From: Acidimicrobiales bacterium
Lineage (GTDB): Bacteria; Actinomycetota; Acidimicrobiia; Acidimicrobiales; CATQHL01
NCBI GenBank assembly: GCA_963664235.1
Contig: OY760933.1
Coordinates: 76,503 to 140,502, forward strand
Length of the DNA stretch: 64,000 bases
Direction of reading: 5' to 3'
Shown here: positions 1 to 63,065 of the stretch, one piece after another
How positions within the stretch are numbered: position 1 is the first letter of the stretch
How the letters are laid out: every line of letters begins with the position of its first letter
Program-made: the position numbers and the translations under genes
The notes under the pieces: model-generated
Seen by the model: only the letters and a program-made list of their open reading frames with translations
Database searches by the model: none
Told to the model about the DNA's origin: nothing

Positions 1-625
1 GCTGGCCCTGGCCGCGCTGGCCGCGGTCCGGCTGCTGGACGCCACCGGGCACGACCTGGTCATCGTGGAGACCGTCGGCATCGGGCAGGTCGAGGTGGAC
101 ATCGCCCGCACCGCCGACACCACGATCGTGGCCGTGAGCCCGGGCTGGGGGGACGCCGTTCAGGCCAACAAGGCCGGGCTGTTGGAGATGGCCGACATCT
201 TCGTCGTCAACAAGGCAGACCGGGCCGGGGCCTCCGACGCCCGGCGGGACCTGGAGTACATGTTGGATCTGGGGCACCGCGACGGCTGGAGGCCGCCGGT
301 GGCGCTCACGGTTGCAACCACCGGCGACGGCGCCGACGAACTCTTCAAGCACGTGCAGGACCATCGCCACCACCTGCGCGACTCCAGCGCCTTGGCCGAC
401 CGGCGCGCCCGTCACGTCGCCGAGGAAGTTCGCCGCCACCTGCACCGCTGGGTGGACGAGCTGTGCGAACACCCCCCCGAACGGGCTGCGGCGCTGTTCG
501 CACAGGTCGCGGCCGGCCGGCTGGCACCGTCGGCGGCGGCGCGGCGACTGGCCGGCGAACTCGGCAAGCTCAGCGACCGTGACGGTGAGACCGCTGAGAC
601 CGCCGGCGAAGAGACGGAGGTCTGA
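1..625 (+). CDS. meaB: MeaB/ArgK-type G3E GTPase (methylmalonyl-CoA mutase accessory protein), C-terminal part; 5' end lies outside the window
   Basis: The frame of ORF 65..625 is open back to base 2. The translation ...HDLVIVETVGIGQVEVD...FVVNKADR... carries the ETVG(I/V)GQ and NKxD GTPase motifs of MeaB/ArgK. The stop at 623-625 lies 1 nt before the next ATG. Confidence 0.8.
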   Translation, partial: LALAALAAVRLLDATGHDLVIVETVGIGQVEVDIARTADTTIVAVSPGWGDAVQANKAGLLEMADIFVVNKADRAGASDARRDLEYMLDLGHRDGWRPPVALTVATTGDGADELFKHVQDHRHHLRDSSALADRRARHVAEEVRRHLHRWVDELCEHPPERAAALFAQVAAGRLAPSAAARRLAGELGKLSDRDGETAETAGEETEV

Positions 626-626
626 C

Positions 627-1871
627 ATGCAGAGCCCCCTCACCGGAGGACCCGGCGCGATCGTGCTGACGGGCTGGCAGCAGGCCCGCGAGGCCTACCG
701 GAGCAAGAATCTGCGCCAGGCCATGTACGACGAGGGGGCCGTCATCATGGAGGACTGCCTGCTGGTGCTGCACGGCGAGGCCCACCGGCGGCGCCGGCGC
801 GTGGAGAACCGGCTGTTCCGCCGGGAGGTGTTCGCCCACTGGGAGCGCGGGGTGCTGGGCGAGACCCTGAACGCGGTGCTGGCACCATACCTCGCCGCCG
901 GAAGGGCCGACCTGAGGGCACTCGGCTACCGGGCGGCCATCAGCCTCACCGCCACGATCGCCGGGGTGGACCACGACCCCGCCAACGTGGCCCACACCTC
1001 GAGGCTGGAGGAATTCGTGGGGACCTTCAGCGCCGGGGCGACCCTGGCACACTCCACCCGGGATCCCGAAGAGGTCCGGGCGGAGGTGCGAGAGCAGTTG
1101 CAGGCATTCCGGGTCGAGATGCTGACCGAGTCCCTGGACCGGCGGCGGGAGTTGCTGGCCCGGCTGGCCCGCGGCGAGATCGCTGAGGAGGGCCTTCCCC
1201 ACGACGTCGCGACGCTGTTGCTCCGCCACCAGGAGGCCCTCGACATCACCGATGCGGTGATCGAGCGGGAGATCTGCTTCTACCTGCAGGCCGGGGCCCA
1301 CAGCACCGCCGACACCTACACCCACGCCCTCGATGAACTCTTCAGCCGCGGCGGATCGCATCCCGAGGATCTCGAGCGGGCATCCAGCGATGCGGCCTTC
1401 GCCCAGCGCTGCGTGCACGAGTCGCTGCGCCTCAACCCGGCAAGCCCGGTGGCGTGGCGCGAGCCGCTGCGAACCGTGAACCTGCGCGACGGCACGGTGC
1501 TGCCCCAGGGCAGCAGGGTCGTCATCGATCTCGCCACCGTGAACCGCGACCCGGAGGTGTGGGGGCCCGACGCCGGCGTCTTCAACCCACACCGGACCGT
1601 TCCGGAGGGCGCCAATGCCTGGGGCCTCAGCTTCGGCGCAGGGGCGCACGCCTGCATCGGCGCCGAGCTCGACGGCGGCATGGAACTCCTCGGGGACACC
1701 ACGCCCGACGATGACCATCTCTACGGCACCGTCGCAGTGATGGTCACGGCCACGCTCGCCGCCGGCGGCCGACCCGACCCGCAGAACCCGCCGGTGCAGG
1801 ATCCCAACACCAAGCGCCCACACTTTTCGTCGTACCCCATCATCTTCGCGGGAGCCCAGGAGCAGCCATGA
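627..1871 (+). CDS. Cytochrome P450, paralog 1 (non-canonical I-helix)
   Basis: Start taken at inner ATG 627 of ORF 312..1871; the upstream part overlaps meaB and is Arg/Pro-rich. It has the heme-thiolate loop FGAGAHACIG and the ExxR motif HESLR. The I-helix reads AGAHST (1290-1307). It aligns over its full length with 3837..5090. Confidence 0.85.
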   Translation: MQSPLTGGPGAIVLTGWQQAREAYRSKNLRQAMYDEGAVIMEDCLLVLHGEAHRRRRRVENRLFRREVFAHWERGVLGETLNAVLAPYLAAGRADLRALGYRAAISLTATIAGVDHDPANVAHTSRLEEFVGTFSAGATLAHSTRDPEEVRAEVREQLQAFRVEMLTESLDRRRELLARLARGEIAEEGLPHDVATLLLRHQEALDITDAVIEREICFYLQAGAHSTADTYTHALDELFSRGGSHPEDLERASSDAAFAQRCVHESLRLNPASPVAWREPLRTVNLRDGTVLPQGSRVVIDLATVNRDPEVWGPDAGVFNPHRTVPEGANAWGLSFGAGAHACIGAELDGGMELLGDTTPDDDHLYGTVAVMVTATLAAGGRPDPQNPPVQDPNTKRPHFSSYPIIFAGAQEQP

Positions 1872-2671
1872 CGACCGACCGTTCCCTTCTCGTGACCGGC
1901 GGCGCCGTCGGCATCGGTGCCGAGATCGCCCGGCTCGCGGCAGCTGCGGGCTACCGCGTCGGAGTCCTCGACGTTGACGCCACTGGGGCACAAGCCACCG
2001 CGGAGGGCATCGACGGCGCGGTGGCGCTGGCGGCCTCGGTCAGCGACGAGGACGAGATCGAAGCCGCGCTCGACGCCTTCGGCACCCCTGAGGTGCTCGT
2101 CAACAACGCCGGCATCGTCCGCTTCGGACCTCTCCTGGATCTGCCGGCCGGTGACTTCAGGGCCGTCGTGGACGTGAACCTGGTCGGCACCTTCCTGTGC
2201 GGGCGGGCCGCGGCGCGCCGCATGGCCGGCGCCGGGGGCGGGCAAATCGTGAACGTGGCGTCCATGAACGGCATCGCGCCCGGCCCCAATGCCGGCGCCT
2301 ACGCCTCCACCAAGGCCGGCATCATCATGCTGACCCAGCAGATGGCGCTGGAGTGGTCGCGCTTGGGCGTACGGGTCAACTGTGTCGCCCCGGGACTTAT
2401 CGACGGCGGCATGTCGGCACCCATCAACGCCGACCCGGTGCTGCGGGCCGAGCGCGAGATCGCCGTGCCGCGAGGCCGTCTCGGCAGCACCGCCGACATC
2501 GCCAAGGCCGTCCTGTGGCTGGCCTCGGCGGACTCCGACTACGTCTGCGGCCAGACGCTGCTGGTCGACGGTGGCATCACCATGTCGATCCTCTCGCACC
2601 TGCCGCGGCCGGCCAGCGTGGACGGCGTGGGCGACGACGCACGCACCCCTGGACGCCCGGCGGCGTCATGA
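1868..2671 (+). CDS. Short-chain dehydrogenase/reductase (SDR)
   Basis: The start forms an ATGA overlap with the P450 stop. Motifs seen are TGGAVGIG, NNAG and YASTKAG (YxxxK). Confidence 0.85.
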   Translation: MTTDRSLLVTGGAVGIGAEIARLAAAAGYRVGVLDVDATGAQATAEGIDGAVALAASVSDEDEIEAALDAFGTPEVLVNNAGIVRFGPLLDLPAGDFRAVVDVNLVGTFLCGRAAARRMAGAGGGQIVNVASMNGIAPGPNAGAYASTKAGIIMLTQQMALEWSRLGVRVNCVAPGLIDGGMSAPINADPVLRAEREIAVPRGRLGSTADIAKAVLWLASADSDYVCGQTLLVDGGITMSILSHLPRPASVDGVGDDARTPGRPAAS

Positions 2672-3432
2672 GACCTGTCGAGGGCATGTCGGTGCTCATC
2701 ACCGGGGGCGGGTCGGGCATCGGCGAAGGCGCCGCGGAGCACTTCACCGCAGCCGGCGCGTCGGTGACGATCACCGGGCGCCGGGCGGAGAAGATCGGGG
2801 CGGTGGCGGACCGGCTGGGCGATCGCTGCTGCGCCGTGGCGGGCGACGTGACGGTGGCCACCGACCGCGAGCGAATGGTCGAGACGGCTGTGCGCCACGG
2901 CGAGGGGCGCCTCGACGTGCTCTTGAACAACGCCGGGAACATGTACCGGGGCCCGGTGGAAGAACTCGAAGAGGATCGGCTGCTTGCCCTGTTCCACAGC
3001 AACGTCGTGGCAGGCATGATGCTCTGCGGCATGGCTGTGCCGCACTTGCGCCGAACGCAGGGATGCGTGCTGTTCGTGGGCTCGGTGCACACCAAGCGCA
3101 GCTTCCCCGGCGTGGCGCCGTACGCGGCCACCAAAGGCGCCATCGAGACGCTCACCGGCGTCCTGGCCGCCGAATTGGGACCGCAGGGAATCAGGGTGGG
3201 CTGCGTGCGCCCCGGCGCGGTGCTCACCGAGATCAATCAGCGGGCCGGGCTGTTCGACGACGAGCAGGCCGCGGCCCGGTTGGCGGCGATGTCGGGGGCC
3301 CACGCCCTCGGGCGCATCGGCACCGCCACCGAGATCGCCGAGGCCTTCGAGTACCTGGCGAGGGCCGAGTGGACCACCGGGGAGGTGCTGGTCGTGGACG
3401 GCGGCCTGGGACTCGGGATCACCCATGACTGA
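2668..3432 (+). CDS. Short-chain dehydrogenase/reductase (SDR)
   Basis: Start taken at inner ATG 2668 of ORF 2197..3432, in an ATGA overlap with the previous stop. Motifs seen are ITGGGSGIG, NNAG and YAATKGA. Confidence 0.85.
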   Translation: MRPVEGMSVLITGGGSGIGEGAAEHFTAAGASVTITGRRAEKIGAVADRLGDRCCAVAGDVTVATDRERMVETAVRHGEGRLDVLLNNAGNMYRGPVEELEEDRLLALFHSNVVAGMMLCGMAVPHLRRTQGCVLFVGSVHTKRSFPGVAPYAATKGAIETLTGVLAAELGPQGIRVGCVRPGAVLTEINQRAGLFDDEQAAARLAAMSGAHALGRIGTATEIAEAFEYLARAEWTTGEVLVVDGGLGLGITHD

Positions 3433-3796
3433 GCCCATGGGCGATCTCGCCCGGCGCAGCGCCCGGCAGGTCGTCGAGGATCATCTCGAGTCCATCGGGA
3501 CCGGCGACCCGGCCGCCATGGCCGCGGACTACGCCGCCGATGCCGTCCTGGTGCGCGGCGAGGCGTCCTATGTGGGCGCTGCGGTGATCTGCGAGTACTT
3601 CGAGTCCGTGCCCCGGCGGCTGGCAGGCGGTGAGGTGTCCTTCGGCGAGCGCACCGACCACGGCGGCGGTCGCATATCGGTGCGCTGGCGCATCAGTGGC
3701 GGGCCCGCCGGCGGCACGTCCGGCTGTGACACCTTCACGGTCGCCGGCGGCGCCATCTCGCATCAGTCCGTGGCTCTCGACGATGCCGACTTCTGA
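3425..3796 (+). CDS. Small SnoaL/NTF2-like protein (family-level guess)
   Basis: 123 aa, overlapping the upstream SDR by 8 nt. Size and pattern (...VVEDHLESIGTGDPAAMAADYAADAVLV...) resemble SnoaL-like/NTF2 folds. No diagnostic motif was seen. Confidence 0.5.
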   Translation: MTEPMGDLARRSARQVVEDHLESIGTGDPAAMAADYAADAVLVRGEASYVGAAVICEYFESVPRRLAGGEVSFGERTDHGGGRISVRWRISGGPAGGTSGCDTFTVAGGAISHQSVALDDADF

Positions 3797-3836
3797 ACCG
3801 CTCCTTTGAACGACTCCCTACGATGAGGCGCCGACC

Positions 3837-5090
3837 ATGACCTCCACCACCACGAACCCCGACAATCCCGCCACGGCCGCCCCCCGGACTGTCACCGTCA
3901 CCAGCCTCGCCGCGGCACAGCGTTGTTACCGCAACCGCGACCTGCGCCAGGGCTCCTACGACGAGGGTGACGTGGTCATGGCCGATGTGGTCATCAACCT
4001 GCACGGCGCCGAGCACCGCAACCGTCGCCGCCTCGAGAACCGCCTGTTCCGGCGCGACACCTTCTGGCACTTCGAGCAGGATCTGTTCCCGGCGATCTTC
4101 GACGAGACCCTGGCGCCGCACCTGGCGGCGGGCCGCACAGAACTGGTGCGCTTCAGCCACCAGCTGATGATGAACCTGGCGGCTCTCACCGCCGGCGTGG
4201 ACCGCCACGAGGGCACGCCGGAGGAGACCTTCCGCCTCTACGACTACCTCATGCTGTTCATCGAGGGCGCCACGATCGCGCACTACACCGGCGACAAGGC
4301 CGCCAAGACGGCCGAGATCGCACAGGCACTGGCAGCGTTCGGTGAGGAGTTCCTCTCTCCGGGAATCGCACGCCGCCGGGCGATCCTGGACCGCATCGCC
4401 GCCGGCGAAGCGCCCGAATCCGAACTGCCCCCCGACGTGCTGAGCGTGCTGGTCCGCAACCAGGACAACCTGGACCTCACGCCGGAGATCATCTGCCGGG
4501 AGGTGGCCTTCTACATGCTGGCCGGGGCGCACACCAGCGCCACCGCCTTCACCCGGGCGATGCACAACATCTTCAGCTGGCTCGAGGAGCACCCCGAGGC
4601 CGCCGACCTGCCGCGCACCGACCGGCTCTTCTGCCAGCGCGCCACCCACGAGACGATCCGGCTGCAGCCTTCCAGCCCCGTGGCTGTGCGCTGGGCCGAG
4701 GCCGACTTCGAACTCGCCGACGGCACCGCGGTCCGCACCGGCGACAAGGTCGTCATCGACCTGCCGACGGTGAACCGTGACCCCGCTTTCTTCGGCGACG
4801 ACGCCGACGACTTCAACCCGATGCGCGGAGTCCCCGAGGGGGCGCACCCTTGGGGCCTCAGCTTCGGCATGGGGATGCACGCCTGCATCGGCCAGGATCT
4901 CGCCGCGGGCGTGGTGCTCGACCCCGACAGCGGGCTCGGCAGCCATCTGTTCGGCGTCACACCGGTGGCGGTGCAGACCATGTTCGACCACGGCTGCGTC
5001 CCCGATCCCGACGATCCCCCCGAGATGGACCCCTCCACGACACGGCCCTACTTCGGCCGCTACCCGGTGATCTTCACCCGCAGCACCTGA
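3837..5090 (+). CDS. Cytochrome P450, paralog 2 (non-canonical I-helix)
   Basis: It has the heme loop FGMGMHACIG and the ExxR motif HETIR. The I-helix reads AGAHTS (4521-4538). It is a paralog of 627..1871. Confidence 0.85.
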   Translation: MTSTTTNPDNPATAAPRTVTVTSLAAAQRCYRNRDLRQGSYDEGDVVMADVVINLHGAEHRNRRRLENRLFRRDTFWHFEQDLFPAIFDETLAPHLAAGRTELVRFSHQLMMNLAALTAGVDRHEGTPEETFRLYDYLMLFIEGATIAHYTGDKAAKTAEIAQALAAFGEEFLSPGIARRRAILDRIAAGEAPESELPPDVLSVLVRNQDNLDLTPEIICREVAFYMLAGAHTSATAFTRAMHNIFSWLEEHPEAADLPRTDRLFCQRATHETIRLQPSSPVAVRWAEADFELADGTAVRTGDKVVIDLPTVNRDPAFFGDDADDFNPMRGVPEGAHPWGLSFGMGMHACIGQDLAAGVVLDPDSGLGSHLFGVTPVAVQTMFDHGCVPDPDDPPEMDPSTTRPYFGRYPVIFTRST

Positions 5091-5208: not shown

Positions 5209-5943
5209 ATGAGCGTTGCAACCCTGGGACCCAGCACCGACCAACTCGCCGCCATGACCCCCGAGGAGTTCGTGGGACTCCTGCGGGCCGAGCTCACCAG
5301 GCCCGGCTGCGGCATGGCCGACCACCCCGTCGTGGCCGCCATGGAGGACGGCAGCATCACCGTCGCGCAACTGGTGCTGTTCTGCGAGCAGTTCTACCTG
5401 CACATCTCCCGCATGCTTCCCTGGATCGGGGCGATCTACGTGAACTGCCCCCACGAGGACGTGCGCACCACGCTGGTCAAGAACCTGGCCGAGGAGTGCA
5501 TGGGCATCGAGACCGGCACGAAGGCCCACCCCGAGTTGCTGCTGGAGTGGGGAGCGGCCCTCGGCGGTGACGTCGAGGCCATGCGCACGGCCGAGCAGCT
5601 GCCCGCCGGCCGCCGGCTCACGGAGTACTTCGAGTTCATGGGGCTGTGCCGCGACTGGTGCGTGCCGCTGGCCGCCATCGGCATCGGCCTGGAGTCCTTC
5701 GTGCCGGACACCTTCACACGCATCGTGGCGGCCCAGAAGAAGAACTACGGCATGAGCGACGAGGACCTCATCTTCTGGACTATGCACATCCTCGCCGACG
5801 CCGAGCACGGCGACGAGGGCATCGAGATCGTCTCGGAGTACGCCCGCACGCCTGCCCAGCGCGACGCCGTGTACCACTGCACGCTGGAGACCGGGCGCCT
5901 CTTCTACGACATGTGGAACCTGTATCGCACCGTGCCGGCCTGA
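5209..5943 (+). CDS. Heme-oxygenase-like (TenA/PqqC/CADD-type) putative diiron oxidase
   Basis: Start taken at inner ATG 5209, preceded by GGAGG (5196-5200). The protein looks all-helical and has the carboxylate/His pairs NLAEECMG...H and ILADAEHGDEG typical of the Haem_oxygenase_2/HDO family. Confidence 0.55.
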   Translation: MSVATLGPSTDQLAAMTPEEFVGLLRAELTRPGCGMADHPVVAAMEDGSITVAQLVLFCEQFYLHISRMLPWIGAIYVNCPHEDVRTTLVKNLAEECMGIETGTKAHPELLLEWGAALGGDVEAMRTAEQLPAGRRLTEYFEFMGLCRDWCVPLAAIGIGLESFVPDTFTRIVAAQKKNYGMSDEDLIFWTMHILADAEHGDEGIEIVSEYARTPAQRDAVYHCTLETGRLFYDMWNLYRTVPA

Positions 5944-7097
5944 TGGACCTGAGCGCCGAGCAGGAGGCCCTGCGGGAGACGGTCGCGGCGCTCGCCGCCG
6001 ACCTCTACGAGCCCCAGGCTGCTTCCTGGGATGCCGAGCGCACCCCGTTCCCCGACGCCGAGAGGCGCCGCCTCGCCGAACTGGGATACATGGGGATGGG
6101 CCTGCCGCCGGAGTACGGGGGTGGCGGGGCCGACCTGCTTGACTCCCTCATCGTCATCGAGGAGCTGGCCAAAGCCGCCCCGACGGCGGCGTTCGGTGTG
6201 TTCGAGGCCAACACCGGCCCCGCACGTGTCATCGACCTCTTCGGCACGCCCGAACAGAAGGCCCGCCTGCTTCCTCCCGTCGCCGGCGGCGAGGTGACCA
6301 TGGCGATCACCATCTCCGAGCCCGACGCCGGCTCGGCCGCCACCGACATGACCACCGCCGCGGTGCGCCAGGGGGACCGCTACGTGATCAACGGCATGAA
6401 GCGCTGGTGCTCGGGCGCAGGTCACGCCGAGCAGTACCTGGTCTACGTGCGCCTGAGCGACGAGCCCGGCGCCCGTTCCATCGGGGCCCTGGTGGTCGAC
6501 CGCGACAGCGACGGGCTGAGCTTCGGACCCCAGGAACGGCTCATGGGGTTCCGGGGCATCCCCTCGGCGGACATGTTCTTCGACGACGTGGCCGTTCCGG
6601 CCGAGAACCTGGTCATCGGCGCGGGCGGCTTCGGGCAGCTGTTCACCGCGTTCAGCATCGAGCGGCTCGGCAACGCCACGATGAGCCTGGCCATCGGCCA
6701 AGCCTGTGTGGACCTCTGCGCCGCGTACGTCACCGAGCGCCGCCAGTTCGGCAAGGAAATCGTGGAGTTCCAGACGGTGCAGACCGCCCTTGCCGACATG
6801 ATCCTGCAAGTGGAGGCGGCCCGGCTGCTGATCTGGCGGGCGGCGGCGCGTGCGGGCCGCGGCGCGCCGCGCACCCTGGAGGCCTCGCTGGCCAAGTGCT
6901 TCGCCAATGAGATGGCCAAGAAGGTGGCCGACGTGGCGGTGCAGCTGCACGGCGGCTACGGCTACAGCGAGGAGTACGGCATCGAGCGGCGCCTGCGCGA
7001 CTCGCACGGCTGGGCCATCGCCGGTGGCACGCCCACCATCCAGAAGGTGCGGATCGTCTCGGAGTACCTGCAGCGCCGCTTCAACCAGCGCGCCTGA
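5943..7097 (+). CDS. Acyl-CoA dehydrogenase
   Basis: Start taken at inner ATG 5943, in a TGATG overlap with the upstream stop. The ACAD pattern runs throughout (...LGYMGMGLPPEYGGGG..., ...KRWCSGAG..., ...FGKEIVEFQ..., ...IAGGTPTIQ...). Confidence 0.85.
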   Translation: MDLSAEQEALRETVAALAADLYEPQAASWDAERTPFPDAERRRLAELGYMGMGLPPEYGGGGADLLDSLIVIEELAKAAPTAAFGVFEANTGPARVIDLFGTPEQKARLLPPVAGGEVTMAITISEPDAGSAATDMTTAAVRQGDRYVINGMKRWCSGAGHAEQYLVYVRLSDEPGARSIGALVVDRDSDGLSFGPQERLMGFRGIPSADMFFDDVAVPAENLVIGAGGFGQLFTAFSIERLGNATMSLAIGQACVDLCAAYVTERRQFGKEIVEFQTVQTALADMILQVEAARLLIWRAAARAGRGAPRTLEASLAKCFANEMAKKVADVAVQLHGGYGYSEEYGIERRLRDSHGWAIAGGTPTIQKVRIVSEYLQRRFNQRA

Positions 7098-7114: not shown

Positions 7115-8329
7115 CTAGCGGTCGGCGCCCAGCAGCACGGCGTTGTGGTATTGGGCGCCCGAACCGGCGCCGGTCACCAGGGCCACCTCGGCGCCGGGCA
7201 CCTGTGACGGCCCGGCGGTGCCGCGGATCTGGCGCACCGCCTCGACGATCTTCAGCGTCGGGCCGCCCCAGCCCACGTGCGAGTACGCCATGAGTCCCCC
7301 GTCGGTGTTGGTGGGATGCCGGCCGTCGAGCCCGATGCCGGCCTCGGCTAGGTAGTCCACGCCCTCGCCTTCGCCACAGAAGCCGAGCGTCTCGAACTGC
7401 CGGATCACCTCGAAGGTGTTGATGTCGTAGAGCTCGAAGACGTCCACGTCGGCAGGCCGCAGGCCCGCCATGGCGAAGCTGCGCCGGTAGGCGCCGGAGC
7501 CGATGCGGGCCACGTCGTCGTAGCGGGGCGGATCCACGTACTGCTGGCGGTGCCACTCCGAGCCGCCGCCCAGGATCACCGCCGGCGCTGATGGGCAGTC
7601 ACGGGCGCGCTCGAGGCTCGTGATGACCATGGCGGCAGCGCCCTCGGTGGCTAGGCACAGGTCCAGCAGCCGGAACGGCTCGGCCACCGGCGGCGACGCC
7701 AGCACGTCGGCCGGCGTGTACGGGCCACGCCCGTACATCACTGCGGCGGGGTTGGCGGACCCGGCGTTGCGGATGGTGGCGGGCACCAGCGCCATCCGCT
7801 CGGGGTCGGGGGCGAACCGGTGCAGATACACCTGCGCCACCAGGGCGAACTGCGCGGCGGTGAGCGACCCCCAGCACGAGGTGAACTCGTTGTCGGGCCG
7901 GGTGTAGGAGGCCACGGTCCCCCCGGCGCCGCTCGCGGCGTCGCCGCCAGAGGACACCCCGGCGCCGGACTCCCCTGCTCTGCCCCCGAACACCAGCACC
8001 GTCGAGGCTTGGCCGGCCAGGATGGCGCCGGCGGCGTCGAGCAGGCCGGGGGCTCCCTGTGGGTAGGTGTCGCCCACCCAGTTGAACCCCTTGCCCACCA
8101 GCGCCGACCAGTCCACGGAGCCGGGATGGAAGATCGTGCCGCCGGGACCGGGCCAGCGCGCCGAGATGCCGTCCACGTCGTCGAGGCCCATCCCGGCGTC
8201 TGCGAGCGCGGCGTGCGCCGCCTCCAGGCAGATCTGCACAGAGTTCCCTTCGAGGCTCCGGGCCTGGCGCGTGGCCGCCACTCCTGCCACGGCGATGCCC
8301 GCCAGCGGGTGACTGCCCAAAGCGCTCAC
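7115..8329 (-). CDS. Thiolase-like protein of the SCP-x / lipid-transfer (Ltp) type
   Basis: GTG start at 8329 in a GTGA overlap with the upstream stop. It shows a thiolase-fold pattern (...GQASTVLVFGG..., ...TNTDGGLMAYSHVGWGGPTL...). It shares an operon with a DUF35 protein. Confidence 0.75.
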   Translation of the reverse strand: MSALGSHPLAGIAVAGVAATRQARSLEGNSVQICLEAAHAALADAGMGLDDVDGISARWPGPGGTIFHPGSVDWSALVGKGFNWVGDTYPQGAPGLLDAAGAILAGQASTVLVFGGRAGESGAGVSSGGDAASGAGGTVASYTRPDNEFTSCWGSLTAAQFALVAQVYLHRFAPDPERMALVPATIRNAGSANPAAVMYGRGPYTPADVLASPPVAEPFRLLDLCLATEGAAAMVITSLERARDCPSAPAVILGGGSEWHRQQYVDPPRYDDVARIGSGAYRRSFAMAGLRPADVDVFELYDINTFEVIRQFETLGFCGEGEGVDYLAEAGIGLDGRHPTNTDGGLMAYSHVGWGGPTLKIVEAVRQIRGTAGPSQVPGAEVALVTGAGSGAQYHNAVLLGADR

Positions 8330-9879
8330 ACCTGGCGACCCTCGCCCCAGAAACGCTTGCGGATCTGGTCCTTGGCGATCTTGCCGACCGCGTTCTTCGG
8401 CAGGGAATCCATCAACTCAACCCGCTCGGGCACCTTGATCGACGTCAATTCCGACTGCCGGCAGTGCTCCCGCAACTCGCCGGGGCCGGCCGTCGCCCCG
8501 TCCTTGAGCGCCGCCACCGCCACGATGGCCTCACCCCAGTCCGGATCGGGCACACCGACGACCGAGCACTCAAGCACCGCCGGATGGCGGTACAGCACGT
8601 TCTCGATCTCTGTCGGGGCGATGTTCAACCCGCCCCGGATGATGAGGTTCTTCAGCCGGTCGACGATGTAGATGAACCCCTCGTCGTCGATCTCCGCCAC
8701 GTCCCCGGAGTGCATCCACCCGTCGCGCAGCGACTCGGCGGTTCGCTCGGGGTCGCGGTAGTAGCCCTTCATCACGTACGGACCGCCGAAGATGACCTCG
8801 CCTCGCTCCCCGGGCGCCACGTCTCGACCCTCGGCGTCGACGACCCGCACGTCCACGGCGTAGGACGGCTGGCCGCAGGAGCCCAGCAGTTCGGGACGCT
8901 CGGTGAGTCCCCGGTGGTGGTCCTCCTTGCGCAGCATGGTGCCGATCGAGGCGATCTCGGCCATGCCGTAGAGCTGGTTGAAGATGTTGCCGAAGCGGCC
9001 GACCAGTTCGCCGAGGCGCTCGGGCGAGATGGGCGAGGCGCCGTAGCCGAGCGTCACCAGACCGCCGAGAAGCCCGTCGTGTACCGGTGGCAGGCGATCC
9101 AGCAGGCGCATCAGCTGCGTGGGAACCAGGAACGAGTGGCTGACGCCCTGGCGGTCGGTGGTCTCGGCGAATCCCCTCGGGTCGAAACTCCGGCTGTCCC
9201 CGAACCCCAGGGCCGCCCCCATCAGCAGCACCGGCACGATCGTGATGTTGACGCTGGAGTTGTGCGGGATCTGCAGCAGGTAGCGGCTGTGCCGGCCGAT
9301 CTCGTACTCCAGGGCCGTGACGGTGGCGTGCTGCAGTACCCGGGCGTGGTCGAACAGAACCCCCTTCGGACGCCCGGTCGTCCCGCTGGTGTAGACGATG
9401 CAGAAATCGTCGTCGGAGCGCACCTCGTGCAGCGTGGGCGGCGGGGTCGCGGATCCCGCGGCGACGAGTGACCGGTACGGCTCGGCGTCGATGTCCAGGA
9501 CCTCCAGGCCGTACTTCTCGGAGGCCTCGACGGTCTGGTGGAGGTGCTCGGTGTCACAGAGCAGCAGCCGCGGCCGCGCATTGTCGATGATCTGGTCCAG
9601 TTCCGCCGGGCCGAGCCGGAAGTTGAGCCCCACGTAGACCGCGCCGCTCTTGGTGATCCCACCGAGCACCTCGACGACCTCCGGGCGGTTCGCCACGAGC
9701 AGCGCCACACGGTCGCCGGGCTCGATACCGAAGCGATCAGCGAGCATGTTGGCGATGCGGTTGGTCCGCCCCTCCAACTCCGCCCAGGTCACATCGCGAC
9801 GCTGCGGGCCCACATCGAACAGCGCGGTCGCGTTCGGGTACCGCACCGCGTTGCGCCGGAACGCCAAGCCGACGTTCAT
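8326..9879 (-). CDS. Acyl-CoA synthetase (AMP-forming)
   Basis: Motifs seen are YTSGTTGRPKGV, GGPYVMKGYY and C-terminal LPKNAVGKIAK. Start set at ATG 9879 (MNVGLAFRRNA...). The longer ATG 9960 adds 27 codons with poor third-position GC. Confidence 0.85.
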   Translation of the reverse strand: MNVGLAFRRNAVRYPNATALFDVGPQRRDVTWAELEGRTNRIANMLADRFGIEPGDRVALLVANRPEVVEVLGGITKSGAVYVGLNFRLGPAELDQIIDNARPRLLLCDTEHLHQTVEASEKYGLEVLDIDAEPYRSLVAAGSATPPPTLHEVRSDDDFCIVYTSGTTGRPKGVLFDHARVLQHATVTALEYEIGRHSRYLLQIPHNSSVNITIVPVLLMGAALGFGDSRSFDPRGFAETTDRQGVSHSFLVPTQLMRLLDRLPPVHDGLLGGLVTLGYGASPISPERLGELVGRFGNIFNQLYGMAEIASIGTMLRKEDHHRGLTERPELLGSCGQPSYAVDVRVVDAEGRDVAPGERGEVIFGGPYVMKGYYRDPERTAESLRDGWMHSGDVAEIDDEGFIYIVDRLKNLIIRGGLNIAPTEIENVLYRHPAVLECSVVGVPDPDWGEAIVAVAALKDGATAGPGELREHCRQSELTSIKVPERVELMDSLPKNAVGKIAKDQIRKRFWGEGRQV

Positions 9880-9963
9880 GCGAGCACTCTCATCCCGTTG
9901 CCTCGGAGTGCCGACCACCGACGCTGCCCAGAGGCTCGGGCCGGCGCACCTTCGGGGCATCGC

Positions 9964-10389
9964 TCATGCAGCGGCCTCGGAAGCGCTGCGATCGGTCGTG
10001 CACGGGGCGAAGGCCGGCAGCAGGACCCCGTCGGGCCCGGGCACGAAACGGACCTGCACCTCCATGCCGATCCGGACCTCCTCCGCGGGGCAGTCCACGA
10101 TCCACGTCAGGAGCGACCAGCCCTCGGTCACGTCCACGATCGCCAGCACGTAGGGCACCTCGAAGGACGGCTCGGGCGGGCGATGCACGACGGTGAAGCT
10201 GTAGATCGTGCCGCGCCCCTCGCTGGGCTCGTAGCTCCACTGCCCCCAACCGCAGTGCGCGCAGACGACCTGGGGGGTGAAGAAGCTCCGAGCGCAGCGG
10301 GCACAGACGGGCCGCAGCAGTTCGCCCCTGTCGAGCGCCGCCCAGAACTCACCGGTCAGCGCTCGATCGGCGCGGTCCGGCGGGGGCAT
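9964..10389 (-). CDS. DUF35 zinc-ribbon/OB-fold protein (thiolase/aldolase partner type)
   Basis: It has a CARCARSFFTPQVVCAHCG zinc ribbon followed by an OB-like C-terminus. The ATG at 10389 lies 7 nt after the upstream stop. Confidence 0.75.
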   Translation of the reverse strand: MPPPDRADRALTGEFWAALDRGELLRPVCARCARSFFTPQVVCAHCGWGQWSYEPSEGRGTIYSFTVVHRPPEPSFEVPYVLAIVDVTEGWSLLTWIVDCPAEEVRIGMEVQVRFVPGPDGVLLPAFAPCTTDRSASEAAA

Positions 10390-10396
10390 CGGGCGC

Positions 10397-11269
10397 TCAG
10401 TCCTCGTGCAACAGGAGCGCCATGGCAGCGTCGCGCACAGCCATTCCCTCGGTCACGCCGCGGGCGCGAGCCAAGCCGTTGCAGGCGCCCACCTTGCCGA
10501 TCTCGTACGCCTTGAAGGCGTCACCGATGGGTGCGGTCCAGGCGTCGAAGGAGCCGCCCGCCAGCCCGTGGCGCTCCACGATGTCGAGGCCGGCGATGCC
10601 GGAGTCGTTCTTGGCTCGGCCGCCGTCGGCGCAGATGAAGCCGTGGGGGGAGACCTCCAGCAGGAAGCCCGCCCCGCTCCGACCCGTGTGGCCCGCCGTC
10701 ACCAGCACGTTGCGGGAATCGCCGGGCTGAGCGAACACGATCGAGTCGGTCACGACCAACTCCCGTCCCGTCGGCGACGTCGCCATCACCTCGCGGCGGA
10801 TCTTCGTGCCCTCGTCGATCTCACCGACCGGGTCGTTGCATGCCAGAAGCCGTGCAGCTTCGGCGACAGCCATGCCTTCGGTCACCCCGCACCGCTCGGC
10901 GTAGATGTTCACCCGGCTGATGACCCCACAGGTGTACTGGTCCATGCCGTTGCCCAGTTCGGAGGACTCGGCCGACGCGGTGGCGGCGGGTATCCCGAGA
11001 GCCTCCAGGTACCAGAGTCCGGCGATGCCCGCCCCGTCCATGCCCACCGCGCCGTCGTGGGCGATGACCGCCCGGGGCCTGTGGGGGACCATGAGCCGCG
11101 CGGGCAGCACTCCCAGGTACGACGCCGGCACGACGACGTCGGTGCCGCGATTGCGGGCGTCCACGTACCGGGCCGAATCCATGACCACGATCCGCCGGTC
11201 CCCGTGGCTGGCCACGACCTCCTGGGGGTGGTCCGCCTCGTTCGCAAGCAGCGGTGCTTCTGTGACCAT
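10397..11269 (-). CDS. Uncharacterized protein built from two tandem ~140-aa modules (paralog A)
   Basis: ATG 11269 is preceded by GAGGAG. The two halves align with each other (DGAVGMDGAGIAGLWYLEALG...ERCGVTEGMAVAEAARLL versus DGGRAKNDSGIAGLDIVERHG...ARARGVTEGMAVRDAAMALL). The protein aligns end to end with 18008..18886. I recognised no known domain. Confidence 0.6.
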   Translation of the reverse strand: MVTEAPLLANEADHPQEVVASHGDRRIVVMDSARYVDARNRGTDVVVPASYLGVLPARLMVPHRPRAVIAHDGAVGMDGAGIAGLWYLEALGIPAATASAESSELGNGMDQYTCGVISRVNIYAERCGVTEGMAVAEAARLLACNDPVGEIDEGTKIRREVMATSPTGRELVVTDSIVFAQPGDSRNVLVTAGHTGRSGAGFLLEVSPHGFICADGGRAKNDSGIAGLDIVERHGLAGGSFDAWTAPIGDAFKAYEIGKVGACNGLARARGVTEGMAVRDAAMALLLHED

Positions 11270-11394: not shown

Positions 11395-12423
11395 CTATCC
11401 GACCAGGTGCGGTGCCCGCTGGGCCAGGCGCAGGAGCCGGGTGGCGTTGCCGTTCAGGGTCGCCATCAGATCGGCCACGTCGGGACCGGTGCCCTTGTCC
11501 CAGCCACCGAAGTTGGTGCCGTAGACCAATTGGTCGGTGCCGAGGGCGTCGGCCACGAAGGAGAACTCGCGGGCACCGGTCACGTGGCAGTCGAACCAGA
11601 GCCGAGCGAGCTGCTGGTCGAAGACGCCGGCGGGCTTCAACCATTCGGGCGAGGCGGGGCGACGCTCGGCCAGCTTGCGCAGCTTCGAGAGCACGAGGGC
11701 GAGCGATCCGCCGCCGTGACTGAGACAGATGTCCAGCGCCGGATGGCGGCGCAACACCCCGCCGAAGATCAGCGTGGCCGCGGCCAGGGCCTCCTCGAGG
11801 GAGTACTCCAGCACCAGGTCCAGATCCCAGCGGCGCAGACGTTCGTCCAGCAGCGCGCCGTCGATGCCCGATTGGGTCGGATGCAGGAACAGGGGCACGT
11901 CGAGCTCCACACAGGACTCGTACAGGGCGTCGAGGACCGGGGAATCCAGCGGCGTGCCGAAGTCGGTGCCGATGTAGCCGCCGAGCAGCCCCAAGTCGCT
12001 CACGATGCGCTGGAGCTCCGCGCAGGCCGCGTCGATGTCCTGCATGGGCAGGGCGCCGAGACCCACGAACCGGCCGGGATGGTCGGCGACCACCTCGGCG
12101 AGGCTGTCGTTGTGGGCACGGCAGAACTCGACGGCCGCCGGCGCGTCGATGAAGTGCAGGTAGGTCAGCGGGTTCGGCGACAGCGCCTGCACGCTGATGC
12201 CGGCGGCGTCCATGGCGGCGAGGCGCATGTCCACCTCGATGAACAGCGATCCCCGGTAGGCCACGCCGTCGAGTTGGTAGTTGCCGACCCGGAACCAGGG
12301 GCTGCCGTCGGGGTGGTAGCCGATCTCGGGACCGCAGGCCCCGGCCTGGCCCATCGATCCCTCCAGCACGATGTGGCCGTGCACGTCGATGAGGCCATCT
12401 GCCAGACCATCTGCACTTCTCAC
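11395..12423 (-). CDS. Amidohydrolase_2 family metal-dependent hydrolase/decarboxylase (ACMSD-like)
   Basis: Start set at GTG 12423, in a GTGA overlap with the upstream stop. It opens with the metal site LIDVHGH and also has ...PLFLHP... and ...GTNFGGWD.... Confidence 0.75.
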   Translation of the reverse strand: MRSADGLADGLIDVHGHIVLEGSMGQAGACGPEIGYHPDGSPWFRVGNYQLDGVAYRGSLFIEVDMRLAAMDAAGISVQALSPNPLTYLHFIDAPAAVEFCRAHNDSLAEVVADHPGRFVGLGALPMQDIDAACAELQRIVSDLGLLGGYIGTDFGTPLDSPVLDALYESCVELDVPLFLHPTQSGIDGALLDERLRRWDLDLVLEYSLEEALAAATLIFGGVLRRHPALDICLSHGGGSLALVLSKLRKLAERRPASPEWLKPAGVFDQQLARLWFDCHVTGAREFSFVADALGTDQLVYGTNFGGWDKGTGPDVADLMATLNGNATRLLRLAQRAPHLVG

Positions 12424-18007: not shown

Positions 18008-18886
18008 ATGACCCGACCAGCAACCGCCGAGCAGGTGCCCACCCAACAGACCGCCGTCTACTCGTCGCCGGCGGGGCGCGGGCGGGTCTGCGCCATGGAT
18101 TCCGCCTATCACGTGGATCCGGCCAACCGGGGCCGGGACATCTGCGTGAACTCCTCGTACTGCGGCGTCCTGCCCGCCCGGTTCATCGCCGAGGCCGCCC
18201 CGCGGGGGGCCATCGGCATGGACTGCGGCATCGGACCGGAGGGTTCGGCCATCGCAGGCCTCTGGTACCTGGAGGCGCTGGACATTCCCGCCGCGGTCGC
18301 CGACGTGCTGAGCGCGCGGCTCGGCGACGGCGTGCACCTGTACGACAACGGCGTCATCAGCTTCTGCAACCAGCCGGCGGCCGATTGCGGGGTGCGGGCA
18401 GGCATGCCGGTCGCCACCGCAGCCCGCATGATGCTGGAGAACGACCCGACCCCGGCGTCGGCCGACGAGATCACCAACCGCACGGTCATGCACACCGCCA
18501 CCGACGGCCGCTGCGTGATCGCCACCGACTCCATCGCCTTTGCCACCCCCGTCGACCGCGGCCGCAACGTTCTGGTGACCGCCGGGCACACCGGGCGCAG
18601 CGCGGTGCCGTACCTGCGCCGGGCAAGCCCCTGGGGGTTCATCTGCTCCGACGGGGGGCGCGGCATGGACGACTCGGGCATGGCAGGGCTGGCCATCGTG
18701 GAGGCCGACGGCCTGGCGGGCGCAACCGTTGACGCTCGCCGCGCCCGCATGGGCAGCGGGCTGTCGCACTACCACGACGGCGTCATCTCGGCGGCCAACG
18801 CCCTTGCGGTGGCCCGTGGCGTGGAGATCGGCATGGGTTGCCCCGAGGCCGCGCTGCTGCTCCTGGCCCGCCCGGATGAGTCCTGA
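18008..18886 (+). CDS. Uncharacterized protein built from two tandem ~140-aa modules (paralog B)
   Basis: It aligns over its full length with 10397..11269 (MDSA.H/YVD..NRG.D..V..SY.GVLPAR..., GIAGLWYLEAL.IPAA..., NVLVTAGHTGRS..., GFIC.DGGR...DSG.AGL.IVE..GLAG...). Its 3' end overlaps the next gene by 11 nt. Confidence 0.6.
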   Translation: MTRPATAEQVPTQQTAVYSSPAGRGRVCAMDSAYHVDPANRGRDICVNSSYCGVLPARFIAEAAPRGAIGMDCGIGPEGSAIAGLWYLEALDIPAAVADVLSARLGDGVHLYDNGVISFCNQPAADCGVRAGMPVATAARMMLENDPTPASADEITNRTVMHTATDGRCVIATDSIAFATPVDRGRNVLVTAGHTGRSAVPYLRRASPWGFICSDGGRGMDDSGMAGLAIVEADGLAGATVDARRARMGSGLSHYHDGVISAANALAVARGVEIGMGCPEAALLLLARPDES

Positions 18887-36819: not shown

Positions 36820-37143
36820 GTGGATTCATGGCATCACGTCGGCGGCGTGTCGGACTTCGAAGTGGGTTGGCCTGGAGAGGTCCGGATCGGGTCCCAGCAG
36901 ATCGCGGTGCATCACACGCCCGAGGGTTTCTTCGCAACCGGGGCGATCTGCACGCACGAGGACGAGAGCCTCATCGACGGGCTGCTCGAGGGTTGCGAGA
37001 TCGAGTGCCCGAGGCACATGGCGATCTTCGACGTGCGAACCGGTGAGGTGCTGTGCGCGCCCGCAATCGTGCCGCTGCCGACCTATCCCTGCGAGGTCCG
37101 GGGCAGCGAGGTGTGGGTACTTGTTCCCGACGCGGGCGTCTAG
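36820..37143 (+). CDS. Rieske [2Fe-2S] ferredoxin
   Basis: Start set at GTG 36820, 20 nt after the upstream stop. The ~107-aa protein has CTHEDESL...CPRHMAIF (CxH...CxxH). Confidence 0.75.
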   Translation: MDSWHHVGGVSDFEVGWPGEVRIGSQQIAVHHTPEGFFATGAICTHEDESLIDGLLEGCEIECPRHMAIFDVRTGEVLCAPAIVPLPTYPCEVRGSEVWVLVPDAGV

Positions 37144-37262
37144 GCGCCCTCAGGCGGCTCTGGGTCCATCGACACGTCCGGGCAGGCGGGATACGCTCAC
37201 AGGCGTTGATCGGCCGCCTGCCGGGCCCGCGGCCGGCGCCTGACGAACGGGGGCATGGACTC

Positions 37263-38366
37263 ATGACAACAGCCCAGAGGTCCGAGCGTCGCCGCGACTG
37301 GATCCCTGAAGAGCCGGTCGACTTCGCGCCCGTCTTCGTCTGGCCCCCGCAGCCCAAGGCGCTGGCGAAGTACTTGTTCGGGTGGGGCGGCTTCCTGTGG
37401 CCGTGGCGGATCATCTGGCTCGGCCTGGCCATCGGTTCGTGGTACTGGCTGTCGCCGGACCTCGCTCAGGCCCGCAACCTCGAGGTGGGCTGGATCGCCA
37501 CGATCTTCGTCCGGAACCTGGTGTTCATATGGCTCGTCGCCGGCGGGATCCACTTGGTCCTGTACACGCTGAAGCTGCAGGGAACCGACCTCAAGCACGA
37601 CCCGAGATGGCTCTTCGTGGGCCGCCGCACGTTCCTCTTCAAGTCCCAGGTTCGCGACAACGTGTTCTGGAGCTGCGTGAGCGGCGTGACTCTCTGGACG
37701 GCCTGGGAGGTGCTGTTCTTCTACGGCTACGCGCACGGTTGGGTGCCGTACCTCGGGTGGTCCGACAACCCAGTGCTGTTCGTGCTGCTCTTCGGTGTGG
37801 TTGTTCTCTTCCGCAAGATCCACTTCTACTTCACGCACCGGCTCCTGCACTGGGGGCCGCTGTACCGCAGCGCCCACTACCTGCACCACAAGAACACCAA
37901 CCCGGGGCCGTGGTCGGGCATGGCCATGCACCCCCTCGAGCACCTCATCTACCTGAGCTCGGTGGTCATCCACTTCGTGGTGGCCTCGCACCCCGTCCAC
38001 ATGATGTTCAACATCTTCGAGACCGCCCTGGCGCCCGCGCACGGCCACACCGGGTTCCACGGCAAGACCGTCAAGGGGAAGCTGCCGGTGGGCGACTACT
38101 TCCACTGGCTGCACCACCGCTACTTCGAGGGCAACTACGGCGAGAACGTGATTCCCCTCGACCGCTGGTTCGGCACGTTCCGGGACGGCCCACCCGACGG
38201 CAGCCCCGGCGCACCCCTGCCGACCGAGCGCCACTACGAACTCGCCGGCGAGGATCCGCGCGGACGGGTCGCCGCCCGGGGCGCTCCCCCGCTTGCGCAG
38301 AATCGCCGGCCAGCCCTTCAAGCGCCTGCAATCTCCGGTGGAAATAGGCTGCATTTCACTGTCTGA
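37263..38366 (+). CDS. Membrane fatty-acid hydroxylase / sterol-desaturase superfamily enzyme
   Basis: Start taken at inner ATG 37263. It has several hydrophobic helices and the His boxes HRLLH, HYLHHK and HWLHHRYF. The last ~55 codons are low-complexity with poor third-position GC and may not be the native C-terminus. Confidence 0.75.
   Translation: MTTAQRSERRRDWIPEEPVDFAPVFVWPPQPKALAKYLFGWGGFLWPWRIIWLGLAIGSWYWLSPDLAQARNLEVGWIATIFVRNLVFIWLVAGGIHLVLYTLKLQGTDLKHDPRWLFVGRRTFLFKSQVRDNVFWSCVSGVTLWTAWEVLFFYGYAHGWVPYLGWSDNPVLFVLLFGVVVLFRKIHFYFTHRLLHWGPLYRSAHYLHHKNTNPGPWSGMAMHPLEHLIYLSSVVIHFVVASHPVHMMFNIFETALAPAHGHTGFHGKTVKGKLPVGDYFHWLHHRYFEGNYGENVIPLDRWFGTFRDGPPDGSPGAPLPTERHYELAGEDPRGRVAARGAPPLAQNRRPALQAPAISGGNRLHFTV
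38022..38094. repeat. Direct repeat A (internal piece of the hydroxylase gene), duplicated at 39758..39830
   Basis: By hand alignment there are 5 mismatches in 73 nt against 39758..39830. It encodes ...LAPAHGHTGFHGKTVKGKLP.... Confidence 0.8.
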
Positions 38367-38415: not shown

Positions 38416-39702
38416 ATGGAGTCGGCCGGCAACAGCGGTCCGCTCACACCCCATGGGTATCGGCAGCGGACCGCCGATGCGCTCATGACCTGGGCGTTGA
38501 GCAGTTCGCCCATTGTCGCGGTCGAGGGCGCACGGGGTGTGGGCAAGTCCTGGACCAGCCTTCGGCATGCTTGCAGCGAGGTGCGTCTCGACCGGGACCG
38601 CAGAGCTGCCGAAGCGGCGGCGTTGTGGCCCCGCAGAGTGCTCGAAGGCGCTCGACCGAGGCTGGTGGATGAGTGGCAGCTCGCCCCGGGTCTGTGGAAC
38701 GAGGCTCGGCACGTCGCGGACGCCGAGACGGGTCGAGGGTTGTTCATCTTCACGGGATCGGCGCATCCGCCCGACGATCACACTCGACATTCCGGCGCCG
38801 GCCGCGTGATGCGGGTGAGGATGCGACCGATGTCGCTCGCAGAGTCTGGAGAGTCGACCGGAGAGGCGTCGCTGGCGTCCTTACTCGACGGCGCCGACTG
38901 CTCCGTGGGCACACCTCAGGCATCGGACACCGACGTTGTGGAGGCGCTCTGCAGAGGCGGCTGGCCGAGGCATCTCACTATGGGCGTGGCGCAGGCACAG
39001 GCCCTGTGCCGCGCCTACCTCTCAGAAATCGCTCGCGTGGACATCGGAAGGTTGGATGGCGCAAGACACCGCCCCGAACGTGTCATGAGACTCTTGGAGT
39101 CGCTGAGCCGCAACACCGCAACCGCCGCCGCAGCATCCACTCTCGCCGGCGACATCGCCGGCGACGCTGCGCCGTCCCGCGACACCGTCTCGGACTACAT
39201 CGAATCCCTCAAACGGGTGTACGTGGTGGAGGACCTGCCTGCCTGGTCGGTCCACCTGAGGTCTCGTGCGCGGCTGCGACGTTCGCCCAAGCGCCATCTG
39301 GTGGACCCGTCGCTCGCCGTAGCGGTCCTGGGTGCCGGTCCCGAGCGACTCTGGCGAGATCCGGGATTCCTGGGCCAGGCGTTCGAGTCGCTGGTGGTGC
39401 GTGACCTACGGGTCTACGCGGACGCCAACGAGGCATCCGTCCACCAATACCGCGACAGCAACGGCCACGAACTCGATGCTGTGGTTCAACGCTTCGACGG
39501 CCGATGGCTGGCCGTAGAGGTCAAGCTCGGGCCGGGTGATCGCGTCGACGAAGCGGCCCGGTCGTTGAACGCCGCCTGCGAGCAAATCGACTTCGACCGG
39601 GTCGGCCCGCCCGCGAAGCGGCTGGTGATCACCCCGTCGGGGTACGGTTACGAACGGCCCGACGGCGTCACAGTCGTGCCCGTCACGTCGCTCGGCCCGT
39701 GA
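38416..39702 (+). CDS. AAA ATPase with DUF4143-type C-terminal nuclease-like domain (COG1373-like), paralog 1
   Basis: It has Walker A GARGVGKS, Walker B LVDEWQ and the C-terminal ...HELDAVV...WLAVEVK... (D...E.K). It is a paralog of 58234..59505 and has the same terminal ...GYGYERPDGVTVVPVTSLGP. Confidence 0.75.
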   Translation: MESAGNSGPLTPHGYRQRTADALMTWALSSSPIVAVEGARGVGKSWTSLRHACSEVRLDRDRRAAEAAALWPRRVLEGARPRLVDEWQLAPGLWNEARHVADAETGRGLFIFTGSAHPPDDHTRHSGAGRVMRVRMRPMSLAESGESTGEASLASLLDGADCSVGTPQASDTDVVEALCRGGWPRHLTMGVAQAQALCRAYLSEIARVDIGRLDGARHRPERVMRLLESLSRNTATAAAASTLAGDIAGDAAPSRDTVSDYIESLKRVYVVEDLPAWSVHLRSRARLRRSPKRHLVDPSLAVAVLGAGPERLWRDPGFLGQAFESLVVRDLRVYADANEASVHQYRDSNGHELDAVVQRFDGRWLAVEVKLGPGDRVDEAARSLNAACEQIDFDRVGPPAKRLVITPSGYGYERPDGVTVVPVTSLGP

Positions 39703-44686: not shown

Positions 44687-44697
44687 CTCGACCTTCC

Positions 44698-44726
44698 TAT
44701 TCAAGGATACAATACAACCTTGAATA
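44698..44726. promoter_or_regulatory. Perfect 9-bp inverted repeat just upstream of the Fic start (candidate operator)
   Basis: TATTCAAGG-atacaatacaa-CCTTGAATA lies 11 nt upstream of ATG 44686 and abuts the RBS. Confidence 0.4.
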
Positions 44727-63062: not shown

Positions 63063-63065
63063 GCC

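Follow-up and report, generated by a model that had tools for sequence, protein, structure and literature searches.

Two paralogous cytochromes P450 with a CYP51-like I-helix histidine, probably ferredoxin-dependent monooxygenases, in an operon of an Acidimicrobiales bacterium

The I-helix motif (A/G)Gx(D/E)T(T/S) is typical of the cytochrome P450 (CYP) superfamily without defining it. In CYP152 peroxygenases its acid-alcohol pair is Arg-Pro, and the sterol 14-alpha-demethylase CYP51 is a classical monooxygenase that depends on O2 and on redox partners. The CYP51 motif reads AGQHTS throughout the family (PMC4229089), and CYP255 enzymes (GcoA and SyoA) display a non-canonical Gln-Glu pair, SyoA working only through the peroxide shunt in vitro (PMC11842817). 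Ferredoxins with the motif CXXSXXC(X)nCP are documented as a [3Fe-4S] class able to support P450 activity, and in Mycobacterium tuberculosis only two ferredoxin genes are found near CYP genes (PMC6237146). Here we describe two paralogous P450 genes, P450-1 and P450-2, from a 64-kb stretch of an Acidimicrobiales bacterium genome (contig OY760933.1, positions 76,503 to 140,502). This whole stretch is hereafter the window, to which coordinates refer unless another locus is named. Both genes encode a His at the I-helix acid position, and both probably specify ferredoxin-dependent monooxygenases of a family distinct from CYP51.

P450-1 (627-1871, 414 aa) and P450-2 (3837-5090, 417 aa), both on the plus strand, are members of the P450 superfamily by their cysteine loop, ExxR motif, profile score and fold. 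Against Pfam PF00067, whose cutoff is 22.8 bits, the divergent P450-1 scores 59 bits and its paralog 54.8 bits. The heme-thiolate loop reads FGAGAHACIG in P450-1 (1632-1661, with Cys343) and FGMGMHACIG in P450-2 (4863-4892), and ExxR reads ESLR (1419-1430) and ETIR (4650-4661), respectively; Cys343, E265 and R268 of P450-1 are invariant in our alignment A1. A PERF-like motif is present as FNPHR in P450-1 and FNPMR in P450-2. An AlphaFold2 (AF2) model of P450-1 (pLDDT 85, pTM 0.86) has the P450 fold, and Foldseek matches P450-1 with probability 1.00 and a template modelling (TM) score of about 0.7 to many class I bacterial P450s, at 14-23% identity. The two proteins share 45% identity over about 408 residues (E=2e-105). 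A first-pass annotation, made from the sequence alone, had described them as paralogs that keep both the heme-thiolate loop and ExxR; our analysis locates the motifs in both proteins, confirms the paralogy and finds the gene coordinates exact.

Where the canonical I-helix motif has its acid, both proteins have a His, the A-G and the alcohol being present. P450-1 reads AGAHST (1290-1307, plus strand), with His225 (1299-1301) in place of the acid and Ser226 as the alcohol, and P450-2 reads AGAHTS (4521-4538, plus strand), with His232 (4530-4532) and Thr233. The replacement had been proposed in the first-pass annotation, and the letters and the alignments agree on it: the register holds with PikC, CYP107Z12, BM3 and P450cam. 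HMMER sets FYLQAGAHST of P450-1 on LLVAGHETT of PikC, with the His on the Glu of AGHETT, and His225 on the Glu of LVLAGHETT in CYP107Z12. His225 also falls on BM3 Glu267, the next residue on Thr268; hhalign places His225 on Asp251 and Ser226 on Thr252 of P450cam, and His225 pairs with His259 of M. tuberculosis CYP51 (MtCYP51). The BM3, P450cam and MtCYP51 reference sequences were typed copies; the BM3 copy scores 53.9 bits, against 53.9-54.1 bits for the BM3 entries of wild-type length in the Protein Data Bank (PDB), and is therefore close to correct. In the AF2 model the His225 motif lies midway along a 34-residue I helix (residues 209-242). Two HMMER alignments displace the motif, by one residue for 9vgn and by four for 7x53, and neither displaced register yields a conserved acid-alcohol pair. 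The four-residue slide would pair Asp229-Thr230 in P450-1, which is not a conserved alternative motif, since Asp229 is Asn in most P450-1 orthologs and absent from P450-2 (Thr or Ala). A PDB search for solved P450s bearing the His, made with a 41-residue I-helix peptide, matched only designed repeat proteins. As judged from these alignments, His occupies the I-helix acid position in both P450s.

The same column is informative across the family. In 116 full-length representatives (one per 50%-identity cluster, E <=1e-64), the alignment around it is essentially ungapped and it holds H in 47, D in 11, N in 10, G in 9, Q in 8 and others in the rest, the following column being T in 85 and S in 23 (Thr/Ser in 93%). 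Members with a canonical Asp-Thr and members with the His are full-length homologs of each other. Closer to the window the His is nearly constant, occurring in all 120 P450-1 homologs listed, down to about 54% identity, and in nearly all P450-1-type and P450-2-type orthologs of 80 species genomes from the Genome Taxonomy Database. The His-bearing loci include those of Acidimicrobiia, Actinomycetospora, Pseudonocardia, Geodermatophilus, Devosia, Rhodoferax, Steroidobacteraceae and Acidobacteriota. Position 364 (His) covaries with the acid-site His, a correlation confounded by phylogeny, and a His at i+4, as a compensation where the acid-site His is missing, appears as a weak trend.

Some loci depart from this pattern. 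In eight proteobacterial loci (L052, L055, L059, L061, L062, L070, L072 and L077) the acid site of the P450-2-like partner is Phe or Gln (AGAFTS or AGAQTS), with a His (IHS) further downstream by four residues; the His of the P450-1-like partner is retained. A third paralog with Gln at the acid site occurs in several marine Acidimicrobiia loci and in one Pseudonocardia locus. This more distant form reads ASSQTT in marine Acidimicrobiia (L014 17147-18070, L029 13251-14630 and L050 15136-16536); in L029 and L050 a small C..T..C ferredoxin of its own comes after it, and a heme-oxygenase-like gene lies alongside.

The two window proteins belong, by sequence comparison, to a large, very divergent and uncharacterised P450 family. 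It is matched in at least 545 species genomes and comprises 567 representatives at E <=1e-30. The closest PDB matches are CYP134A1 (CypX), PikC/CYP107, P450 BioI and CalO2 (E=1e-11 to 1e-20), which share the class I bacterial fold (TM 0.68-0.74) and differ in their low identity (14-23%) and in the His found here at the acid position. No structurally characterised CYP family member exceeds 40% identity to them, no NCBIfam model reaches its cutoff for the window P450s, and a literature search under the I-helix motif strings AGAHTS, AGAHST and AGSHST returned nothing on this P450 family.

At the N-terminus the family has a trait of its own, a very short region before the C helix (residues 1-66 of P450-1, window 627-830). 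The P450-1 C-helix motif HGEAHRRRRRVENRLFRR (771-824, plus strand, residues 49-66), of which H49, G50, H53, R54, R56-58 and E60-R66 are invariant in alignment A1, pairs with PikC near residues 99-119 and is thus unusually near the N-terminus; in the family at large the motif HGxxHRxRRRxENRLFRR begins at residue 49, versus about 100 in PikC. Relative to PikC, about 45 residues are missing ahead of the C helix, and the stretch between the C and I helices is longer by about 25. The B-C loop and B' helix (substrate recognition site 1) seem nearly absent from the AF2 model of P450-1, where pLDDT is 65-69.

How far the likeness to CYP51 extends can be judged from several features. As in CYP51, a His stands for the acid, and Thr and Thr/Ser come next (AGQHTS or AGHHTS there, AGAHTS or AGAHST here), the HT(T/S) triad of CYP51 corresponding to HTS in P450-2 and HST in P450-1. 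A small [3Fe-4S] ferredoxin, adjacent or fused, is also common to relatives of the window P450s and to CYP51 (M. tuberculosis CYP51B1 and the M. capsulatus CYP51-ferredoxin fusion). By CYP nomenclature a member of the CYP51 family would share more than 40% identity with it, a level that the window P450s do not reach, and only their C-terminal half aligns. The family profile gives MtCYP51 26 bits versus 54 bits for BM3, and the B'/B'C-loop signature Y..[LFM].P.FG..V.[YF]D, found by regular expression in MtCYP51, is in neither window P450. The gene context here is catabolic, versus sterol synthesis for CYP51. A specific kinship to CYP51, for which hhalign gave a probability of 97.7%, was rejected, BM3 scoring far higher with the HMMER profile and the B' signature being absent. 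From these sequence comparisons, the His-Thr/Ser likeness to CYP51 appears convergent. With CYP255 and CYP152 the window P450s share a non-canonical acid-alcohol pair, yet unlike Gln-Glu and Arg-Pro theirs is His-Ser or His-Thr, with the alcohol kept, and the ferredoxin linkage in relatives speaks for O2 activation.

This linkage is the second line of evidence on the function of the pair. Of 81 related loci, 34 encode a ferredoxin of 70 aa that belongs to the Fer4_15/Fer4_13 type and carries the motif C-x2-S-x2-C...C-P. In about a dozen of the loci its start is no more than about 100 bp from a P450 of the family that bears the His; these are Actinomycetospora (L041-L051), Pseudonocardia (L069, L074, L076), Geodermatophilus (L056), L054, L080 and the S. 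cattleya plasmid pSCATT (L081), and the same spacing is seen in Streptosporangiaceae. In marine Acidimicrobiia the ferredoxin lies about 2 kb upstream of the P450 pair. One representative, P0254, is an in-frame fusion of a P450 (I-helix VAAHTS) with a Fer4_15 ferredoxin; neither P0252 nor P0313, two further long representatives, is a redox fusion. A 3.4-Mb contig of Candidatus Poriferisocius, by its genus name apparently a sponge-associated relative, carries in consecutive genes a ferredoxin, a short-chain dehydrogenase (SDR), a P450 (AGMHST), a DUF35 protein, an acyl-CoA synthetase (ACS) and a thiolase-like protein. The coupling of family members to a CxxSxxC...CP ferredoxin (Fer4_15/Fer4_13) resembles the M. 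marinum Fdx9(Ser)/CYP105Q4 class I systems, from which the window differs in that the ferredoxin is missing and that identity to any solved CYP is at most 23%. The lack of a nearby ferredoxin is specific to the window's clade. At the pSCATT locus (L081 11836-17083) the His-bearing member and its ferredoxin stand beside a 1211-aa non-ribosomal peptide synthetase (NRPS) module, a neighbour which places the family in a secondary-metabolite context as well.

From sequence and gene context, we consider it probable that the products of both genes are functional monooxygenases of class I, dependent on ferredoxin and activating O2, with a CYP51-like His-Thr/Ser relay, their partners being encoded elsewhere in the genome. 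The His would replace the proton-relay acid of the I helix and may itself relay protons, with the Thr/Ser alcohol kept, and this arrangement would have arisen independently of CYP51. For this genome we infer that the electron source is most likely a small CxxSxxC...CP [3Fe-4S]-type ferredoxin together with a generic reductase, both encoded elsewhere. From the loss of the acid, the first-pass annotation had suggested non-standard chemistry, such as that of peroxygenases, isomerases or dehydratases, and had added that the idea would fail if the same substitution were common in ordinary monooxygenase CYP families. In kind this is the case, with AGQHTS in CYP51, and unusual chemistry is not supported, because the partner-dependent CYP51 bears the same His-Thr-(Thr/Ser) triad and because His-bearing relatives adjoin, share an operon with, or are fused to a ferredoxin. 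The M. tuberculosis precedent also makes a missing neighbouring ferredoxin the rule and not an anomaly.

Several observations weigh against this assignment as monooxygenases. The family has no characterised member and no known substrate, and the alcohol residue of P450-1 is Ser, not Thr. Unlike CYP51, where an Asp/Glu of helix F forms a salt bridge to the His and thereby gates the delivery of protons, a search by covariation for an acidic partner returned no His-specific acid here. The other points concern redox partners, which were sought in the window by Pfam on called genes, by a Cys-motif scan of open reading frames of at least 50 aa and by tblastn with the family-linked ferredoxins. A Rieske protein (36820-37143) is the sole ferredoxin of the 64-kb window, which holds no ferredoxin-reductase-type gene. 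The window thus encodes no dedicated ferredoxin, with or without a reductase, next to the P450s, as a class I system might. The three scans agree here with the first-pass annotation, which had reported no ferredoxin or reductase in the operon and only the Rieske protein in the window. Neither a ferredoxin nor a reductase occurs within 10 kb on either side in 14 loci of the window's own clade (L001-L013 and L039), and among the best 120 of 952 matches to the family ferredoxin none falls on the window's 3.49-Mb contig. The Rieske [2Fe-2S] gene is followed by that of an FA_hydroxylase-family membrane di-iron enzyme (together 36820-38366, plus strand), and the two are probably a two-component hydroxylase of their own rather than a P450 partner.

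The missing partner genes near the P450s of the window's clade would be accounted for if the enzymes were peroxygenases or hybrids, the I-helix His acting as a distal acid-base catalyst and H2O2 being used through the peroxide shunt. This is the alternative that survives best, and we hold it to be unlikely. Besides the absence of partners from the window and from the loci of its clade, it draws on the distal His/Asp/Glu acid-base residues of peroxidases and peroxygenases, on the high variability of the acid column in the wider family and on CYP255 SyoA, whose Gln-Glu pair goes with shunt-only activity in vitro (PMC11842817). Against these stand the ferredoxins that adjoin or are fused to His-bearing members, the partner dependence of CYP51 with the same His-Thr pair and the alcohol kept in 93% of representatives. 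Furthermore, the side chain at the acid position of P450s normally points away from the iron.

We give still less credit to the idea that the two form an obligate complex and that one of them serves chiefly a structural or regulatory purpose, like P450-derived helper proteins. P450-1-type and P450-2-type genes do co-occur in most loci, often in tandem, and P450-2 bears a weak likeness to the NCBIfam 'P450-derived glycosyltransferase activator' (44 bits for a cutoff of 343), but Cys, ExxR and His-Thr/Ser are strongly conserved in both paralogs, and loci with a single paralog exist (for example L005, L010, L013 and L081). A redox-neutral P450 of the CYP74/CYP5/CYP8 type, an isomerase or dehydratase in need of neither O2 nor electrons, would fit the lost acid and an operon without partner genes; it is highly improbable in view of a heme loop of canonical length, the retained Thr/Ser, the ferredoxin linkage of relatives and a catabolic context with dehydrogenases suited to hydroxylated products. 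Least credible of all is an alignment artefact with the true motif one helical turn downstream (S-T-A-D229-T230 of P450-1), as when the 7x53 HMMER alignment sets AFAGTDTT four residues downstream, where P450-1 reads ADT, because Asp229 gives way to Asn in most P450-1 orthologs and to Thr/Ala in P450-2, the A-G anchor, like four independent alignments to reference P450s, puts His at the acid position, and where the family has a genuine Asp it stands in the His column.

The surrounding genes indicate in which pathway the predicted monooxygenases may act. The window (G+C about 70%) has as close relatives metagenome-assembled genomes of Acidimicrobiia, whose isolate names suggest sponge metagenomes. 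It opens with the 3' part of a gene for a MeaB-type G-protein chaperone (65-625, plus strand; PF03308, E=6e-34), which starts upstream of the window. As the first-pass annotation had stated, P450-1 begins 1 nt past the MeaB stop: the TGA (623-625) and the ATG (627) are separated by a one-base spacer, and GGAGG stands just upstream. Still on the plus strand, P450-1 is followed by two short-chain dehydrogenases, SDR_A (1868-2671; Pfam adh_short, syntenic across phyla) and SDR_B (2668-3432; assigned by Pfam and synteny), and by a small SnoaL_2/limonene-epoxide-hydrolase (LEH)-like protein (3425-3796; PF12680), which has an LEH-like counterpart beside the P450s in L014. Directly downstream of P450-2 comes a heme-oxygenase-like (Haem_oxygenas_2/CADD-like) putative di-iron enzyme (5209-5943, plus strand; PF14518, with TIGR04305 below cutoff). 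The enzyme is conserved in the clade and, in marine loci, is found close to the third P450; it possibly performs a further oxidative step. An acyl-CoA dehydrogenase (ACAD; 5943-7097, plus strand; Pfam, order as in L083) is the last gene of the operon.

A convergent unit follows on the minus strand (7115-11269; Pfam and NCBIfam), with genes for an SCP-x-type thiolase-like protein, an ACS, a DUF35/ChsH2-OB protein and a 290-aa protein; in L082 and in marine Acidimicrobiia this gene set likewise comes after the P450 pair. Beyond it lies an Amidohydro_2 enzyme (11395-12423, minus strand; Pfam), which co-occurs with the P450 pair in loci of Actinomycetota, Proteobacteria and Acidobacteriota and is the fifth member of a module, two P450s, two SDRs and Amidohydro_2, that recurs across phyla, often with the SnoaL/LEH-like protein added. 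The family is usually met as this module, set within clusters for CoA-dependent catabolism. Besides the thiolase-like protein and its DUF35 neighbour, the CoA-dependent catabolic genes around the pair in the window encode two acyl-CoA synthetases, acyl-CoA dehydrogenases, an enoyl-CoA hydratase, an OYE/dienoyl-CoA-reductase-like protein, a KstD-like FAD enzyme and a Liv-type ABC transporter. In the orthologous loci L002 (6816-9999) and L083 (2797-6808) the operon opens with MM_CoA_mutase, B12-binding and MeaB genes that overlap at their stops and starts, a divergent TetR gene precedes the mutase-led operon, and the gene order of L083 equals that of the window with the mutase genes first. The module is probably co-transcribed with a B12 acyl-CoA mutase in the window's clade. 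Co-transcription of such a mutase with P450s is unusual.

The CoA-catabolic context suggests that the P450s oxidise their substrate in sequence, and this substrate is probably a branched, alicyclic or isoprenoid-like (terpenoid- or sterol-like) lipid. The two paralogs would act at two different oxidation steps of a single catabolic pathway, in an order of reactions that we infer as follows. After each hydroxylation or epoxidation, the SnoaL/LEH-like protein would open the epoxide and SDR_A and SDR_B would oxidise the alcohol; Amidohydro_2 would then carry out a hydrolysis or decarboxylation, and the product would enter CoA activation and a beta-oxidation-like ring or chain cleavage (ACS, thiolase-like/DUF35 and ACADs), in which the B12 acyl-CoA mutase may also take part in the window's clade.

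Other features of the window may be recorded here. Two paralogous proteins of about 290 aa (10397-11269, minus strand, and 18008-18886, plus strand) match no Pfam or NCBIfam family above threshold, and in marine Acidimicrobiia the first is conserved as a neighbour of DUF35, ACS and thiolase genes. An 878-aa protein of RCC1_2 repeats (CG[IL]R..G...CWG; 39883-42519, minus strand) is encoded by a gene of atypical codon and skew profile that was missed by GC3-based gene calling, in a region of strongly negative GC skew, and contains a 111-bp tandem repeat at 41300-41671. A cluster of defence- or mobile-type genes (38416-39702, plus; 58234-59505, minus; 43415-44704, minus; 59795-61650, minus; 63021-63332, plus) comprises two AAA_14+DUF4143 ATPases, a Fic protein, McrBC-like genes and a Phd/YefM antitoxin. 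Scanning the window for Rfam families and tRNAs gave no matches.

These results show that the loss of the I-helix acid, even together with the lack of a neighbouring redox partner, does not suffice to infer unusual P450 chemistry. A bolder version of the finding, which we regard as unlikely, is that a second lineage, independent of CYP51, has fixed His-Thr/Ser and that the His confers a different oxygen chemistry, in which H2O2 is used efficiently or the supply of protons is gated. Were it true, the window's clade, apparently sponge-associated, would run both P450 steps without a dedicated ferredoxin, and the obligate P450 pair would mark an undescribed pathway, widespread in the environment, that acts on branched or alicyclic lipids and is coupled to a B12 acyl-CoA mutase. 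The module is abundant in marine Acidimicrobiia and is present also in the culturable genera Actinomycetospora, Pseudonocardia and Geodermatophilus, so that its substrate could be found experimentally. The I-helix His has been treated as a signature of CYP51; the same His-Thr/Ser pair now appears in a second, unrelated and very large bacterial family, whose close homologs with Asp, Gln or Asn at the His site offer a natural series for the study of proton delivery in O2 activation by P450s.

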